The notes beneath the pieces were generated by a model, which saw only the letters and a list, made by a program, of their open reading frames with translations, did not search any database and had not been told where the DNA came from. A DNA stretch of 35,529 nucleotides from a virus (taxonomy: Duplodnaviria > Heunggongvirae > Uroviricota > Caudoviricetes): IMG/VR virus record IMGVR_UViG_2529292912_000010. The stretch is one strand, 5' to 3'. Within the stretch, counting starts at the first letter, position 1. Every line of letters starts with the position of its first letter. Positions 1 to 27,607 of the stretch are shown here, in pieces. Both the position numbers and the translations under genes were made by a program.

Positions 1-1284
1 TTACAGACTTCTGGAAGGTTGCGCAGCTCTTACAACACGCGGTTGATCTTCCGCAGCGTCTTCCAGCGCACTTAAATCACGGTCTTTCACCTCTGGCATT
101 TTCAGCGCAGAGATTAAACCAATTACTGAATATGCCATGATCATAATGGCGATCGGATACCAGGATTCCGTCATGGTGCAGAAAATACCCGCCAGGATAG
201 GACCAAAACCGGAAGCGATAAGACCACCAATTTCTTTAGAAATAGCCATCCGGGTAAAGCGGTTTTTACAGCCGAACATTTCTGCCATGGTAATGTTTTC
301 CAGAGCAAATAATCCCAGCACCGCACAGTTATGAATCACAATCAGTGCAACCATAATGGTGCTCGGGGCATAGCTTTTATCTACAATGATAGAAAGCATT
401 GGCCATGCCAGCACAATCGCGGAGGTATTCATAATAATATACGGGATCCGGCGACCAATTTTATCGGATAACCAACCAAGGAACGGAATGGTCATAAAGC
501 CGAGAATCGAACTAATCATCAATGCATCTGTTGGAATTGCTTTGTTAAACAATAACGTCTGCACTAAATAGCCTGCAAGGAAAGTCTGAATTAACCCGGA
601 GTTACCCGCCTGACCAAAACGCAGCCCTGTTGCCAGCCAGAAGGATTTGCTCTGGAACATGCTACCAGCAGGTGCAGGTTTTGCTGTGGGTTGGTTGCTG
701 TCATTAACCTTCTCAAAGACCGGGCTTTCTTTCAGATTCATACGTAACCAGATAGCAAAGACCATCACGACAACGCTCGCCAGGAACGGTATACGCCATC
801 CCCACGCCAGCAGTTCCTCTTTACTGAGAATGAAGAACATAAAGGCCCAGATTGCCGTTGCGCTCAAGGTTCCGCAGTTAGTTCCCATAGCCACAAATGA
901 GGAGATAATTCCGCGCTTACCTTTTGGCGCATATTCCGCCAGCATCGTACCGGCACCGGAAATTTCCGCACCTGCACCCAACCCCTGAATAATACGCAAC
1001 GTCACCAGCAAGATGGGTGCAAAAACACCAATCTGTGCATAGGTCGGTAACACACCAATTAAGGTGGTACAGATCCCCATCATGGTGATGGTAATAAAGA
1101 GCACTTTTTTACGCCCTATTCTGTCGCCCATTTTGCCGAAAATAAATGCTCCGACAATACGCGCCACATAACCTGCACCGTAGGTTCCCATTGCCAGAAT
1201 TAACGCCATTGCCGTTGATGATTCAGGAAAAAATATTTCATGAAACACTAACGCTGCGCCGAGCGAATATAACTGGAAATCCAT
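1..1284 (-). CDS. ydfJ: MFS-family transporter (putative metabolite:H+ symporter), 427 aa, complete
   Basis: Full-length ORF with stop at 1-3; multiple hydrophobic helices; MFS loop motif G-x-x-x-D-R-x-G-R-K (GKMGDRIGRKKV) after the second helix. Position relative to ydfK/pin matches my recollection of the E. coli ydfJ-ydfK-pinQ neighbourhood. Confidence 0.85.
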   Translation of the reverse strand: MDFQLYSLGAALVFHEIFFPESSTAMALILAMGTYGAGYVARIVGAFIFGKMGDRIGRKKVLFITITMMGICTTLIGVLPTYAQIGVFAPILLVTLRIIQGLGAGAEISGAGTMLAEYAPKGKRGIISSFVAMGTNCGTLSATAIWAFMFFILSKEELLAWGWRIPFLASVVVMVFAIWLRMNLKESPVFEKVNDSNQPTAKPAPAGSMFQSKSFWLATGLRFGQAGNSGLIQTFLAGYLVQTLLFNKAIPTDALMISSILGFMTIPFLGWLSDKIGRRIPYIIMNTSAIVLAWPMLSIIVDKSYAPSTIMVALIVIHNCAVLGLFALENITMAEMFGCKNRFTRMAISKEIGGLIASGFGPILAGIFCTMTESWYPIAIMIMAYSVIGLISALKMPEVKDRDLSALEDAAEDQPRVVRAAQPSRSL

Positions 1285-2070
1285 AATTCACAGGTGTTTT
1301 TTCCCATCCTGTGGTTTCCTTGGCGTTTTCTAGGTTTTTTCAGATAGTTGCATTTTTTAAAAAGCATCCTAAGTTCGATCTCAGTGTCTATCTGGGGCCT
1401 ATTTCTGTCCCATATATGCCCCAAAAAAAACTCCCCAACAGATAAGTAGTTTTTTCATGGATTTATGCGTAAAATCAAGAACGGCTGGAAATCATTCAAT
1501 ACTCACACTATCGAAAAATTTACCAGCCAACCGCAGCACGTTCTTGCATAAGGCGTGTCTGCGGTTTTTCAACTATTCAGATACATCACTCCCATCACAT
1601 TCATTCCTCCGCATCAAAGGCATATAGGCTATATCACCTTGATATTTTTATTTTTCAGATAAAAACTGTTATCTATGTATACTTTTAAACCCAATCCGTG
1701 TAGAGTCTCTGCATAAGATAGTTTGCAGTTGCCGCTTCAGCTTGCGCCATAAACCGCCTGATTTTTGCTGCCACCTGTTAGCATTCCTGTATACCTGAAA
1801 CGACAATGTTTATCTACGAACTTTAAGAACACCCAAGATAAAAATTGTCAACTATATCATATATAACACATTACTAATTCGAGGCTATATGAACAGCATA
1901 CTGATAATCACATCTCTCCTTATCATATTCAGCATTTTTAGTCATGCCCTAATAAAATTAGGGATTGGCATATCCAATAACCCAGACAAAACCGATGTAT
2001 AAGTCAACATATCCTGAATCAGACATACAATATCGCAATGAAAATCAATAATATTTTAAGGAATATCTTC

Positions 2071-2304
2071 ATGAAATCAAAAGACACCCTAAAGTGGTTC
2101 CCTGCGCAGCTTCCTGAAGTAAGAATTATCCTAGGGGATGCTGTAGTGGAAGTAGCAAAACAGGGAAGACCTATCAATACCAGAACATTGCTTGATTACA
2201 TTGAAGGAAACATAAAGAAAAAATCATGGCTGGATAACAAAGAATTATTACAAACAGCGATATCAGTTCTTAAAGACAACCAAAATTTAAATGGTAAAAT
2301 GTAA
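2071..2304 (+). CDS. ydfK: Small prophage protein of the YdfK/YnaE family (reported cold-shock inducible), 77 aa
   Basis: ORF track gives 88 aa from an upstream ATG; the internal start MKSKDTLKWFPAQ gives the 77-aa form I recall for YdfK. Lies immediately upstream of the pin recombinase, same strand. Confidence 0.6.
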   Translation: MKSKDTLKWFPAQLPEVRIILGDAVVEVAKQGRPINTRTLLDYIEGNIKKKSWLDNKELLQTAISVLKDNQNLNGKM

Positions 2305-2620
2305 TATAATAAACTTACTTTTTTATCATTTTTCCACTTTAACAACATTTTGCTCCACTTTTCCACGACCAAACAACTTGAAATCTGGTTAAAATAACAC
2401 GCAACACTATTCTTCTTCCTTGAGTCCGCCCGGAACTCGAAAAACAAACCGAGTTAAAGCCATTTTTCACAAAATCGATTTTGGGTCTCACCAAAATTAC
2501 GGGGTTGCATACGCATTCGTTTATTTTCGAACGTGTACATACAAATATGCACAAAAATAATCAAAATTATTTTCTGAGATGCATTATGATATGAACACCA
2601 ATTTCGTATAGAGTCTCACT

Positions 2621-3211
2621 ATGTCTCGAATTTTTGCTTACTGTCGGATATCAACGCTGGATCAGACCACCGAAAATCAACGCCGGGAAATCGAAAGTGC
2701 AGGTTTTAAAATCAAACCTCAGCAAATAATCGAAGAACACATTAGCGGCTCAGCAGCAACCAGTGAGCGTCCTGGTTTTAACCGGTTGCTTGCTCGCCTG
2801 AAATGTGGTGATCAATTGATTGTGACAAAACTGGATCGCCTTGGTTGTAATGCAATGGATATCAGGAAAACAGTGGAACAACTGACCGAAACAGGTATCA
2901 GAGTGCATTGCTTAGCATTGGGGGGCATTGACCTGACCAGTCCAACAGGAAAAATGATGATGCAAGTAATTTCAGCAGTCGCTGAATTTGAACGAGACCT
3001 TTTACTTGAACGCACTCATTCCGGGATAGTAAGAGCCCGGGGCGCAGGGAAACGTTTTGGTCGACCACCTGTGTTAAATGAAGAACAGAAACAGGTGGTA
3101 TTCGAACGAATTAAGTCAGGTGTAAGTATAAGTGCCATTGCCCGGGAATTCAAAACCTCGCGGCAAACCATTTTAAGAGCCAAAGCAAAACTTCAGACAC
3201 CTGACATATAA
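2621..3211 (+). CDS. pinQ: Serine recombinase, resolvase/invertase family (putative DNA invertase), 196 aa
   Basis: N-terminal catalytic-serine motif (YCRISTLDQ), resolvase-like core, C-terminal helix-turn-helix ([18 protein letters not shown]). Adjacent to the tail fibre genes, as for Gin/Pin-type invertases. Confidence 0.85.
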
Positions 3212-3308
3212 AAAATAATCTCGGTGTGAGATGCTTTACGTCTTCCAAGCCACCTTCCTTGCCGTAAATGGAAAGATACATCTAATTATAGAATTTATAT
3301 GTTTTACC

Positions 3309-3884
3309 CTACGGCAGTGCTGGCCATTCAATATCCTGTGCAGTTGACGTATCAACACGGTTCAGCAATACCCGATACTTTTTCCATGCTTCCAGCAACG
3401 AGATTTCTTCCTCCGTTGCAATTTCCAGATCTGCAGCATCCTGAAGCGGCGCAATATGCTCACTGGCTACCTGCATCAGGCTGTTTTTTGTTTCTTCCGC
3501 CTCCCGGATCCGGAACAGTTTTTCTGCTTCCGTATCCTTCACCCAGGCTGTGCCGTTCCACTTCTGATATTCCCCTCCCGGCGATAACCAGGTAACATTT
3601 TCCGGTAACGGACCGAGTTCAGAAATAAATAACGCGTCGCCGGAAGCCACGTCATAAACCGTTTTACCCCGATGATCTTCAACGAGATGCCACGATGCCT
3701 CATCACTGTTGAAAACAGCCACGAAGCCTGCCGGAATATCTGGCGGTGCAATATCGATACTGTTTGCTGGCAGACCTGTATGAGGCGGAATATATGCGTC
3801 ACCTTCACCAATAAATTCATTAGTTCCGGCCAGCAGATTATAAATTTTTATGGTCCGTGGTTGTTCACTCATTCTGAATGCCAT
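3309..3884 (-). CDS. tfa: Tail fibre assembly protein (Tfa), 191 aa
   Basis: 191-aa ORF directly downstream of stf with stop/start overlap at 3884; sequence matches the lambda Tfa (orf-194) family as I recall it. Confidence 0.85.
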
Positions 3885-6800
3885 TATGCAAGCCTCACAA
3901 TATAGTTAAATGCGATGTTTTTGACGGTGTTTTCCGCGTTACCAGCAGCGTTAACGGTGATGGTATGTCCATGTGAACCAATCGCAACGGAGTGCGTATG
4001 AGCACCAATACCGACAGTATGTGCGTGTGCACCTGCGCTTGCAGCAGTACCCGATACAGAGTGCGTATGAGCGCCTGCAGAAGAAGTGTTAACACTGTAT
4101 TTAGAGTAATCAGGTGATCCACTTCCCGGAGCACCACTGGAACCACCTGAAACAAATGTCATCGAATGGGTATGTGCACCGGCTGAAGCAGCCGTACCGC
4201 TAACACTATGGGTATGCGCACCAGTGTTATTCGTGGATTTAGTGCCGTAATCAAACGACGATGTGGTTTTCGTCCCCAAATCCGTACTGGATACGCTGGC
4301 GCTGTGGGTGTGTGATTTAATGCCGTCCTGTTCCTGAGACAATACGGCTCGATCACTGGCGGGCTTGCCCTTAATCGTCCAGCCACGCATATCAGGGATC
4401 ACGCCTGACGGATAAGCGGCTGCAAGTTTCGGGTAAGCAGATTTGTCAAAAGTCTGCCCCTGCATCAGGGCATAACCAGACGGAACGGTATCTGATGGCC
4501 ACGGGATTGGTGCACCGACTGGATAAAACTCTGCAGGAGGATGAGCCGAGGTGTAAAGCTGCGCCCACGGCGACCAGTTTGCGTCGGTCGTATCCCGTCG
4601 TGAACGAATAAATGCCGGAGCATGAGCACCGCTTGTACCACTCCAGCCGATGAGTAACTCACCTTCGCCAACGGCTGTCATCCCTTTCAGGTGAATGATA
4701 TTTCCATACGCTGTTGGATATCCGTTGTTATACACCTCGTATAACTCAAGACCTGTTGCCCCCTGCGTATTGTCTGTCAGCGCGGTTACCCGACCTTTTG
4801 AAGACAGATTAACTGATGATACTGCTGTTCCACCTGACGGTAACGCCCCGATCTCTGATGCCGTTGGCTTATTTCTGGAGTTATAGTCCCTTCGCCAGCC
4901 AGGTGAATAATCTGTTCCGTGATTAATATAGGTAAACTGGGCGTTAGTTGTTCCACCACCAGTGGAGGTGGTCGGTGTGGTAATGCGGATCGTCATCGCT
5001 GACTTTATCCCCATTACTTCAATGACAGCTCCGGCGAGATGAATATTACCGCAGCCAGTATCAGTAATGATTTTATTATTGCCATAAGACCAGGAACCCT
5101 TGCACATCCAGTATGGATGGTTAAATGCTCCCTGAGAATCCAGCCACTCGATAAACTGTGCAGTCGTCCAGTTTCCTGTTGTTGTGCTTACTGACCCACC
5201 GAAGGCACGGCAGGCACCAATATTTTTCGTAAAGGTGTCTTTGCCAGGGATATCCGCACCGTTCTGATCTTTCTGCAGACGTTTCTCAGCATTGTCATTG
5301 ACTGCTTTCACTGCTTTCGATGTCGCAGCAAGCGTTTCAGATGCGCTGTTGGTTGCACTACTGAGCTGGACAATTCCTTTTTGTGCTGTCGTAGCGTCCT
5401 GAGCGGTATATTTCCCGTTAGCCAGGTCATACGCGGCCTTAACGGCTTTTGGCGTTGCCGCCAGTGACTCGGAAGTGCTGTTGGTCGCACTGCTGAGCTG
5501 TACTATCCCCTTTTTCGTCGTGCTCGCATCCTCAAGCGCCACGGCGGATGCAATATCCTCTGCCCGTTTTGCTGCTGTCTCGGCGCGCGTTGCCGCGGAT
5601 TCCGCCGTACTTTTGCTCTGAGCTGCCGCCGTCGCACTACCAGCTGCCTCTGTCGCCTTCGTGGATGCCGTCGTGGCGCTGCCTTTCGCTGCTGATGCCT
5701 GTCTGGTCGCCTCATCTTTTGAAGCAGACGCAGATGATGCCGATGACGCCGCCGAACTGGCGGACGATGCGGCAGCCGTTTTTGAGGATTCTGCGCTGGT
5801 TTCCGACGCTTTCGCGTTCGTCTCGGATGTCTTCGCTGCGGAAGCAGACCTCGCTGCTGCGCTGGCCTGTTCAGTGGCTTCGCCAGCCTTCGTTGTGGCT
5901 GTTGAAGCGGACGATGCGGCGCTTTCTGCCGATTTTCCGGCGGCGCTAGCACTGGCTGAGGCCTGCCCGGCACTTGTTGACGCTGCACTGGCAGACGACG
6001 CAGCCGCTGTTTTTGAGCCTGCCGCAGCTGAGGCACTCTGTTCCGCTGCCGTTTCAGAAGACCTGGCGTTTGTCTCAGACGTCTTTGCCGCCTTCGCGGA
6101 ATTGCCTGCCGCCGTTGCCGAGGAAGCGGCACTACTGGCGCTCGAGGATGCGTTCGTTTCTGATGATTTCGCTGCCTCTTTTGAGGCCGCCGCATCCCGG
6201 GCTGAGGTGGCTGCTTCTGACGCCTTCGTGGTCGCGGCGGATGCAGAAGTGGCTGCTGATTGTTGTGACGCTGCCGCATTCGTTTCTGACGTTTTCGCCG
6301 CAGCGGCACTGGTAGCTGCCGCGCTTTTTGAGGACTCTGCAGCAGCAGCACTTTTCGATGCTTCACTGGCCTTTGTTGATGCCGTTCCTGCGCTGGAAGA
6401 TGCTGACTGAGCCGACGACGCGGCCTGTCCGGCTGACGTGCTGGCTGCGCTTGCTGAGCCTGCAGCATCAGTCGCATGGGTTGCCGCCTCACGGGCTGAT
6501 GTGCCGGCATCGCTGGCTGACTTCTTCGCGGCTGCCGTGTTCTGTGCCACCACGGACGCGTTACGCGCCACCTCTTCCACCATCAGCTCAAAACGGCGCA
6601 GTGCCTCCGGACGGGCATCATCCTCCGTCATGGCACCGAGAAAATCATTCAGCGTACCGGGTCGGGAATCTTCATACACTGTGATGGTCCCGGCATGTGA
6701 CGGCGGGAATCCTTCCACCAACAGAATAACGCTGTACTGACCGTACTCAACGTCCATACTGTAACGCCCGGCTTCATCCGGATTTTCAGATGCCAGCGTG

Positions 6801-7637: not shown

Positions 7638-11039
<3,402 letters not shown>

Positions 11040-22139: not shown

Positions 22140-25820
<3,681 letters not shown>

Positions 25821-25846
<26 letters not shown>

Positions 25847-26366
25847 TCAGCAACCCCGGTATCAGTTCATCCAGCGCGGCTGCTTTGTTCATGGCTTTGA
25901 TGATATCCCGTTTCAGGAAATCAACATGTCGGTTTTCCAGTTCCGGAAAACGCCGCTGCACCGACAGGGGGATCCCGTCGAGAATACTGGCAATTTCACC
26001 TGCGATCCGCGACAGCACGAAAGTACAGAATGCGGTTTCCACCACTTCAGCTGAGTCTCTGGCATTCTTCAGTTCCTGTGCGTCGGCCTGCGCACGCGTA
26101 AGTCGATGGCGTTCGTACTCAATAGTCCCTGGCTGGAGATCTGCCTCGCTGGCCTGGCGCAGTTCTTCAACCTCCCGGCGCAGCTTTTCGTTCTCAATTT
26201 CAGCATCCCTTTCGGCATACCATTTTATAACGGCGGCAGAGTCATAAAGCACCTCATTACCCTTGCCACCGCCTCGCAGAACGGGCATTCCCTGTTCCTG
26301 CCAGTTCTGAATGGTACGGATACTCGCACCGAAAATGTCAGCCAGCTGCTTTTTGTTGACTTCCAT
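25821..26366 (-). CDS. nu1: Terminase small subunit Nu1, 181 aa
   Basis: 181 aa; N-terminal winged helix-turn-helix region (MEVNKKQLADIFGASIRTIQNWQEQGMP); immediately downstream of cos. Confidence 0.95.
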
Positions 26367-26543
26367 TGTTCATTCCACGGCCAAAAACAGAGAAAGGAAA
26401 CGACAAAGGCCCAAAAGCTCGTTTTCAGCACCTGTCGTTTCCTTTCTTTTCAGGGGGTATTTTAAATAAAAACATTAAGTTACAACGAAGAAGAACGGAA
26501 ATGCCTTAAACCGGAAAATTTTCATAAATAGCGAAAACCCGCG

Positions 26544-26555
26544 AGGTCGCCGCCC
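26544..26555. other. cosN cohesive-end site (12-nt GGGCGGCGACCT, read on the minus strand)
   Basis: Forward strand reads aggtcgccgccc. Flanking sequence on the Nu1 side (cosB with the GGAAACGACAG inverted repeat) and on the far side (cgtaacctgtcggatcgccggaaag) matches the lambda cos region from memory. Confidence 0.85.
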
Positions 26556-26754
26556 CGTAACCTGTCGGATCGCCGGAAAGGACCCGCAAAATGATAATAA
26601 TTATCATCTGCATGTCACAACGTGCATCTACGCCATCAAACCACGTCAAATAATCAATTATGACGCAGATATCGTATTAATTGATCTGCATCAACTTAAC
26701 GTAAAAACAACTTCAGACAATACAAATCAGCGACACTGAATACGGGACAACCTC

Positions 26755-26988
26755 ATGTCAACGAAGAACAGAACCCGCAGAACAACAACCCGCAACATCC
26801 GCTTTCCTAACCAAATGATTGAACAAATTAACATCGCTCTTGAGCAAAAAGGGTCCGGGAATTTCTCAGCCTGGGTCATTGAAGCCTGCCGCCGGAGACT
26901 GTGCTCAGAAAAAAGAGTTTCTTCTGAAGCAAACAAAGAAAAGAGTGACATTACTGAATTGCTCAGAAAACAGGTCAGACCAGATTGA
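26755..26988 (+). CDS. ynfO: Small prophage protein, 77 aa
   Basis: Basic, Cys-containing 77-aa ORF just beyond cos, in the position of ynfO in Qin-type prophages (recollection). Confidence 0.55.
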   Translation: MSTKNRTRRTTTRNIRFPNQMIEQINIALEQKGSGNFSAWVIEACRRRLCSEKRVSSEANKEKSDITELLRKQVRPD

Positions 26989-27030
26989 AGCAATTTAGAT
27001 AATCGTGCAGACTACGCCCCCTCATATCAC

Positions 27031-27456
27031 ATGGAAGGTTTATCTATGGATCAGGTAGTCATTTTTAAACAAATATTTGATAAAGTTCGAAACGATTTAA
27101 ACTATCAATGGTTTTATTCTGAGCTAAAACGTCACAATGTCTCACATTACATTTACTATTTAGCCACAGAGAATGTTCATATTGTATTAAAAAATGATAA
27201 TACAGTGTTATTAAAGGGCCTAAAAAACATTGTGTCTGTCAAATTTTCAAAGGATAGGCATCTTATAGAAACGACCTCTAATAAGCTGAAATCCAGAGAG
27301 ATCACATTTCAGGAATACAGAAGAAACCTTGCTAAAGCAGGAGTTTTTCGGTGGGTTACAAATATCCACGAACAAAAAAGATATTACTATACCTTTGATA
27401 ATTCATTACTATTTACTGAAAGCATCCAGAAAACTACACAGATCTTACCACGCTAA
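27031..27456 (+). CDS. ydfO: DUF1398-family prophage protein, 141 aa (alternative start at 27046)
   Basis: [19 protein letters not shown]...; gene order after ynfO matches Qin; function unknown. Confidence 0.6.
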
Positions 27457-27607
27457 ACCATAACGTCCGGCTTCTCTCACTCCTGAGCCGGACTGCATTG
27501 GTTTAATAAAAACCATCAACAATTGTGATTTAGATATTCGGAACCATTCAAATATAACAAAACCCCGTAAAAACGAGGTTTATGGATAAATTTTATTATT
27601 GAATACA

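Follow-up and report, generated by a model that had tools for sequence, protein, structure and literature searches.

A lambda-type cos site, complete at the sequence level, in a Qin-type lambdoid prophage of Escherichia coli

Does a cos-like locus in a viral DNA record still hold every element that a lambda-type terminase would need, and could the DNA that carries it be packaged? The locus lies at positions 26367-26620 of IMG/VR record IMGVR_UViG_2529292912_000010, a stretch of 35,529 nucleotides that we refer to as the window. Judged from its sequence, the locus is very probably the cohesive-end site of a Qin-type lambdoid prophage that is full length and has the packaging specificity of lambda.

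Sequence and layout of the cos site

The 12-nt cohesive end of lambda, GGGCGGCGACCT, occurs in the window as a single exact copy (26544-26555, minus strand). A composite pattern that joins it to the upstream packaging-termination signal, GGGTCCT-N21-CG-GGGCGGCGACCT-CG, matched the window once and was found in none of 100 dinucleotide-preserving shuffles. We used this exact pattern to assess chance; a search for the 12-mer with two mismatches had 3.2 expected matches and was uninformative on that point. An Rfam scan of the window gave no match at cos.

We aligned the minus strand of the window base by base to lambda (NC_001416, circularised across the cos junction). Lambda bp 1 corresponds to window position 26555 and lambda bp 48502 to window position 26556. 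One end of the 254-bp interval 26367-26620 is the base that precedes the Nu1 start codon (26366), the other is lambda bp 48438, and all elements from cosQ through R1 lie inside. The interval is 94% identical to lambda, with 15 differences. Six of these are on the cosQ side (lambda positions 48444, 48448, 48459, 48467, 48471 and 48486) and nine on the cosB side (bp 54, 72, 73, 102, 134, a 1-bp deletion at 138, 145, 151 and 176). Only one of the 15, G54A in R3, falls within a defined sub-site. Lambda bp 48487-48502 and bp 1-53, which comprise cosN, its flanking CG dinucleotides and I2, are 100% identical in the window. The spacing between cosN and R3 is preserved, since bp 1-137 align to lambda without an indel.

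The initial annotation had described an intact lambda-type cos in this interval. The alignment bears this out and adds the orientation, minus strand, which had been left unstated: no base of the cohesive end is substituted and no cosB element is lost. The accompanying statement that cosN and both flanks are essentially identical to lambda holds for cosN, which is exact, but overstates the likeness of the flanks, given 15 differences in 254 bp.

Coordinates of the individual sub-sites (Table 1) were taken from published work (PMC9026076, PMC4669245, PMC4856287) and from curated features in the GenBank records of phages 434 and 21, which place cosQ 30-24 bp from the right end, R3 at bp 50-65, I1 at 74-86, R2 at 108-123 and R1 at 151-166.

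Table 1. Positions of the cos sub-sites, late genes and terminal insertion element in the window
Feature	Window position	Strand	Remarks
cosQ, GGGTCCT, packaging-termination signal	26579-26585	-	Exact to lambda 48473-48479; 30-24 bp upstream of the top-strand nick
cosN, 16 bp (12-nt cohesive end plus flanking CG dinucleotides)	26542-26557	-	Exact
I2 spacer (lambda bp 18-50)	26506-26538	-	0 differences from lambda
cosB R3 (bp 50-65), critical TerS (gpNu1) binding site	26491-26506	-	AGGCATTTCCGTTCTT; one change, G54A, at window 26502
cosB I1, core bound by IHF (bp 74-86; opposite strand AAACATTAAGTTA)	26470-26482	-	Exact
cosB R2 (bp 108-123), TerS site, inverted orientation	26433-26448	-	Exact to lambda and 434
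cosB R1, accessory TerS site (own bp 151-166; lambda 152-167)	26390-26405	-	Exact
Nu1 (181 aa), small subunit of the terminase; nohA homologue	25821-26366	-	180 of 181 residues as in lambda Nu1
A (641 aa), large subunit of the terminase	23921-25846	-	Full length; 637 of 641 residues as in lambda gpA
W, B, C/Nu3, D, E, FI, FII, Z, U, V, G, T, H, M, L, K, I, J, lom, stf, tfa	3309-23924	-	Lambda-order morphogenetic operon
IS3-family element (end sequence TGAACCGCCCCGGG)	35116-35529		Inserted at the stop codon of hokD, just past rem; the minus strand encodes the transposase C-terminus

The 7-bp cosQ element is regarded as invariant, with no apparent natural variation (PMC4669245), and we found the GGGTCCT 7-mer in 113 of 116 viral contigs. 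The 16-bp definition of cosN and its symmetry follow earlier work (PMC9026076); its CG flanks are conserved and its spacing to R3 is critical (PMC4669245). If the lambda cutting pattern applies, the nicks would fall at the 26556/26555 boundary on the minus strand and at the 26544/26543 boundary on the plus strand. I2, at about bp 18-50, is essential, sets the spacing between cosN and cosB and is needed at an early packaging step (PMC4856287). Shifts of more than 1-2 bp in the distance from cosN to R3 are deleterious (PMC4669245, PMC4856287).

R3 occupies bp 50-65, TerS contacts the segment bp 55-63 within it, and bases 56, 58 and 59 are functionally defined (PMC9026076, PMC4669245). This contacted segment (TTTCCGTTC), including the critical bp 56, 58 and 59, is unchanged from lambda in the window. 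The I1 core was recovered independently by an IHF consensus scan and is annotated in the 434 and 21 records; the substitutions at bp 72 and 73 (window 26484 and 26483) lie just outside it. C151T (window 26406), common to 434, lies one base outside R1. The spacer between R2 and R1 is 1 bp shorter than in lambda, as it also is in 434 and in all eight comparison phages. The cosB architecture, R3 - I1 (IHF) - R2 (inverted) - R1, is complete, with lambda-type R sequences at the annotated positions.

Compared with lambda (NC_001416, 48473-48502 plus 1-167), the window has the same sub-site order, orientation, cosN-R3 spacing and late-operon order, and its cosQ, cosN, I2, I1, R2 and R1 are identical. 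G54A in R3 and the shorter R2-R1 spacer are among the 15 differences. The resemblance ends upstream, beyond about lambda bp 48141, where the window is non-lambda and carries a Qin-type ydfO/gnsB/csp/lysis/Q region.

Two small open reading frames adjoin or overlap the site. A 47-aa ORF with a TTG start (26506-26649, minus strand) crosses cosQ and cosN, and its counterpart is annotated as a hypothetical protein in phage PhiR42_1 and other phage records. Cleavage at cos would sever this ORF, and it is therefore most likely a gene-caller artefact. The second, ynfO (DUF3950, YlcI/YnfO family; 26755-26988, plus strand), lies about 170 bp from cosQ and is read in the direction away from cos. Over about 140 bp at its 5' end, it agrees at about 99% with lambda DNA that bears no annotation (bp 48162-48304). 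This conserved cos-adjoining ORF is annotated in 434 and PhiR42_1.

Natural variation at cos

We aligned the site to eight sequenced phages from a phage collection and then to phages 434, 21 and N15. The window's differences from lambda are natural alleles and not lesions, and reference lambda is the outlier at most of the differing positions. Phage 434 has 11 of the 15 differences, and the environmental phages Kati, Turner, Chlobot and 2H10 carry many of them. The changes shared with 434 (OL657226.1) include those of the right flank except 48448, together with A73G, T102C, G134A, the 1-bp deletion, T145G, C151T and T176G. The sub-site coordinates of 434 are the same as the window's, as is its Nu1 start at bp 190. 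It differs in having C53T where the window has G54A, in lacking C72T, and at further single bases (bp 23, 99 and 138).

Two relatives carry the R3 allele of the window. Within 26367-26620, bp 72 and bp 151 are the two positions at which the PhiR42_1 cos differs from the window's, and neither lies in an annotated sub-site. The cos of the cryptic K-12 prophage Qin (NC_000913 1636545-1636556, between nohA and ynfO) likewise has G54A, and this prophage occupies the same integration site. The Qin cos departs from the window's in having lambda bases at six positions of its cosQ-side flank and in lacking both C72T and C151T.

We sampled alleles at bp 53/54/72/73 in 120 IMG/VR contigs among the matches listed for a degenerate R3-I1 pattern. 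These contigs carried CGCA (the lambda allele, 37), TGCG (434, 30), CGCG (26), CACG (22), CATG (the window's, 2), CGTG (2) and TACG (1). G54A was present in 25 of the 120 contigs listed (21%). C72T was rare, in 4 of the 120 listed, and was absent from all eight compared phages as well as from 434 and K-12 Qin. The two changes occurred together in 2 of the 120 contigs listed.

G54A alters a G that is conserved in lambda R1, R2 and R3, and the R-core pattern GTTTCCKTTCT consequently matches only R1 and R2 in the window. A minor-groove contact by the TerS wing (Lys35) is predicted on the 5' side of the major-groove contacts, 5' of bp 55, and bp 54 sits there (PMC9026076). These observations, and the rarity of the G54A and C72T combination, could point to a weakened allele, in which G54A in R3 and C72T beside I1 lower TerS and IHF binding and leave cos poorly used or IHF-dependent, much as in the known R3 bp 58 mutant. 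We consider such weakening quite unlikely. G54A alone is common, both among the contigs listed and in PhiR42_1 and K-12 Qin, and the neighbouring bp 53 varies in 434, 2H10 and Stx1 phages. The contact segment defined by NMR does not include bp 54, nor is this a genetically defined base (PMC9026076), and C72T is outside the annotated I1 core. Phage 21 has G at the equivalent of bp 54 in R3 and A in R2 and R1, so that either purine is tolerated at this position in related R sites.

On the G54A contigs among the matches listed, the Nu1 recognition helix (residues 17-24) and wing (residues 31-39) are unchanged, which gives no sign of altered specificity or compensation. A search for compensatory Nu1 changes tied to G54A found none: only K48R recurs, outside the helix and wing, and it is also present on other R3 alleles. 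K48R is strongly enriched with G54A, at 16 of 20 readable Nu1 sequences versus 8 on other alleles (contigs among the matches listed), and this association is probably lineage linkage. The window itself combines G54A with K48. G54A is, then, a common natural allele found with an unchanged lambda-type Nu1 DNA-binding domain. From its natural occurrence we infer that it is neutral; a quantitative effect, such as greater IHF dependence, is possible.

Sites of this kind are widespread. The 254-bp interval was matched in 4591 of 5426 complete E. coli genomes (about 85%), at a median of two places per genome and a maximum of eight. An intact lambda-type cos is here an ordinary, well-understood and already known feature, with little significance beyond annotation. 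The standing of reference lambda as the outlier at many sites in the cos flanks is a small point of use.

Terminase, packaging specificity and cleavage

The window encodes both terminase subunits (Table 1). The sole change in Nu1 relative to lambda is L132I; residues 1-131, including the DNA-binding domain, are identical, and the protein has the lambda recognition helix (with E24) and wing. Each of the lambda proteins from W to I has a full-length counterpart, recovered as a single HSP with 88-100% identity, and J is matched over residues 1-1131 of 1132. The late genes are also full length relative to the PhiR42_1 proteins, and stf and tfa are present at full length. The integrity of the terminase and structural genes, like the sequence, order, orientation and spacing of every cos sub-site, is observed directly in the DNA.

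The C-terminal, receptor-binding segment of J (7676-8539) has no megablast-level match to lambda or PhiR42_1, and the same is true of a middle segment of stf (about 4036-4201); the flanks of both are 95-99% identical. These unmatched segments suggest host-range module exchange.

By the sequence of its R sites and of Nu1, the cos would have the packaging specificity of lambda and not that of phage 21 or N15. The phage 21 R sites (CGTGTCGG / CATGTCGG) are clearly different from those of the window, whose R sites and Nu1 are of the lambda type, and N15 R3 is clearly different from the window R3. Discrimination by the terminase of phage 21 exceeds 1000-fold (PMC4669245). The earlier suggestion that a superinfecting lambdoid phage could supply terminase is thus to be narrowed: it is supported for a helper of lambda specificity but not for any lambdoid phage.

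E. coli has cos-bearing PICIs with a lambda-like cosN (PMC6092414, PMC9026076), and an element with such a cosN could be a PICI-type satellite, or carry a cos of foreign (21 or N15) specificity, and hijack the terminase of a helper. Either possibility is extremely improbable here. Such satellites lack terminase and structural genes, whereas the element has a complete terminase of its own and the full set of head and tail genes. Its cosB follows the lambda R3-I1-R2-R1 arrangement with lambda-type R sequences and is not a divergent PICI cosB. Nu1, which starts at the element's own bp 190, lies directly downstream of cosB, at the place where PICIs carry rpp (PMC9026076). The dissimilarity of the phage 21 R sites and N15 R3 argues against a foreign specificity.

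The initial annotation proposed that the site should be cleavable by a lambda-type terminase. This is supported at the level of sequence, where all requirements for recognition and cutting are present and correctly spaced. Its proposal that the element's own Nu1 and A could provide the enzyme agrees with the full length and near identity of both proteins to those of lambda, and with PhiR42_1, which has nearly the same cos and the same Q, lysis and late genes.

Direct homology to lambda gives an outline of how the site would be used (PMC4669245, PMC9026076). Once the prophage is induced and its late genes are transcribed under Q, dimers of gpNu1 would occupy R3 and R2, between which IHF bends the DNA at I1; R1 would be an accessory gpNu1 site. 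Bound gpNu1 would anchor gpA, and gpA would nick cosN at points 12 bp apart. The terminase-bound cosB end (Complex I) would then dock on a prohead, and DNA would be translocated in the direction from Nu1 through A to J, which is leftwards in window coordinates. The next cosQ, cosN and I2 on the concatemer would stop packaging and leave 12-nt 5' overhangs. For the source strain, we infer actual cutting and packaging along these lines.

The element had also been called packageable. An intact cos would confer cleavability, and to that extent the description fits the sequence; packaging of the element itself would need more, namely excision and concatemers, or tandem copies. Termination requires a further cosQ-cosN, oriented alike and placed within a lambda-sized interval, and the helper-packaging experiments of Feiss used dilysogens for this reason (PMC4669245). 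An integrated single copy has no second cos downstream and so could be cut but would not yield a complete packaged genome. The expected outcome of such a cut is break-stimulated recombination at cos or abortive packaging from one cos. When lambda infects a cell with a defective prophage that has a lambda-type cos, recombination is the outcome on record: with DLP12, the junctions clustered at cos, and DLP12 nu1 functions in lambda (PMC3945230).

Two further-reaching readings are unlikely. The element could be an inducible, complete 'ancestral Qin' in which G54A (with C72T) shifts the needs for TerS and IHF. Alternatively, cutting at a single cos could drive doc-type packaging or recombination; this might be one-directional, involve the adjacent late genes and the chromosome on the ydfJ side, and use either the element's own terminase or that of an infecting phage of lambda specificity. 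If true, either would be an incremental extension of known lambda biology.

The host prophage

The window holds the attR-side 34 kb of an E. coli prophage of the Qin type, full length and integrated at the ydfJ locus. The junction between phage and host lies at about 1276, at the start of ydfJ, and is identical to that in K-12. K-12 Qin matches window positions 1-4788 and 25838-35115 at 97-99.5%, and the 21 kb between them (4789-25837), flanked on either side by sequence at 99.1-99.5% identity, are missing from it. The flanking genes are the same in both: pinQ, tfa and stf on one side, and ynfO, ydfO, gnsB, csp, lysis, ydfT, ydfU and rem on the other. The segment without a counterpart covers A to J, lom and the N-terminal part of stf, and its loss leaves K-12 Qin without packaging machinery. 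The K-12 deletion fuses the C-terminal part of stf to the Nu1/A overlap, giving the K-12 genes 'nohA' and truncated 'stfQ'. The window thus shows K-12's truncated Qin as it was before the 21-kb loss. Together, cos, Nu1 and A, and the head and tail genes mark the prophage as carrying a complete packaging module of lambda specificity, which bears on phage release by the strain or on exchange of late regions with infecting lambdoid phages.

Phage PhiR42_1 (PV340562.1) is colinear with window positions 1276-35115 at 95-99.7% identity. Its Q, holin, endolysin (R) and Rz proteins are 100% identical to those of the window, H, G and FI are 86-89% identical, and the J C-terminus and stf middle are divergent. 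The record is 48,668 bp long with a 781-bp end overlap at 99.6% identity, corresponding to a unique length of about 47.9 kb. Its Qin gene set comprises int/xis, dicA/dicC, relBE, hokD, rem, ydfU, Q, csp genes, lysis genes, cos, Nu1 to J, stf, tfa, pinQ and ydfK. PhiR42_1 is effectively a 'live Qin', its viability being taken from the GenBank host field and from a published account of the ΦR panel (PMC13190303). The ΦR series is a panel of lambda-related temperate phages that were plaque-assayed (PMC13190303).

The window ends inside the IS3-family element (Table 1), and the early region of the prophage (immunity, replication, int/xis) lies beyond it. The element may be a simple insertion or may mark the edge of a deletion. 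PhiR42_1, unlike the window, is free of an IS3-family element at hokD. Among the complete E. coli genomes of the collection, none carries the same rem/IS3 junction in one piece at high identity. The IS element would be about 1.26 kb long, and the upper limit for lambda packaging is about 51 kb. The distance from cos to the phage/host junction is 25,275 bp. From this distance, the PhiR42_1 map and these sizes, we estimate that the IS-containing genome would be about 49 kb if the insertion is simple, below the lambda ceiling.

The IS element at the right end of the window, at the hokD stop codon, raises the question of whether cos is a relic, intact in a prophage that no longer makes virions owing to the insertion or to decay of the early region. 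Such a cos would act only in trans, for an infecting terminase of lambda specificity, and would serve as a recombination hotspot or in gene donation, in keeping with the clustering of lambda x DLP12 exchanges at cos (PMC3945230). Prophages of the same family at the ydfJ/rspB locus have decayed in various ways. PEC389 has an IS1-associated loss of gnsB to ydfC, with the Q, lysis and immunity genes gone; LC-1302-2020 has an IS3 inside Q and has lost early genes; and 1368KP has a tail-fibre IS and pseudogenes. These sister prophages form a natural decay series that ends in K-12 Qin with its 21-kb loss. A relic is nevertheless a doubtful reading of the window, though a possible one. The visible virion genes (Q, holin, R, Rz, Nu1 to J, stf and tfa) are intact and 95-100% identical to those of a sequenced phage; the IS element lies in the accessory hokD/rem region and hits no essential gene; and a genome with a simple insertion would stay under the packaging ceiling. 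Moreover, the relic question bears on the state of the element and not on the cos site, and is compatible with the explanation that we favour, a lambda-specificity cohesive-end site in a full-length Qin-type prophage.

Two accessory genes differ from K-12 and PhiR42_1 by small deletions: a single-base deletion in ydfR (30053-30360) and two single-base deletions, in runs of A, in gnsB (27611-27782). Real frameshifts of these accessory genes and sequencing errors in homopolymers are both conceivable.

The Rfam scan also identified two cspA-type thermoregulator leaders (28425-28809 and 31318-31710, both minus strand) upstream of cspI and cspB, which lie within the late region between Q and cos. 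A match to the Rfam RNA family 'IS009' falls inside tfa (3343-3541, minus strand).
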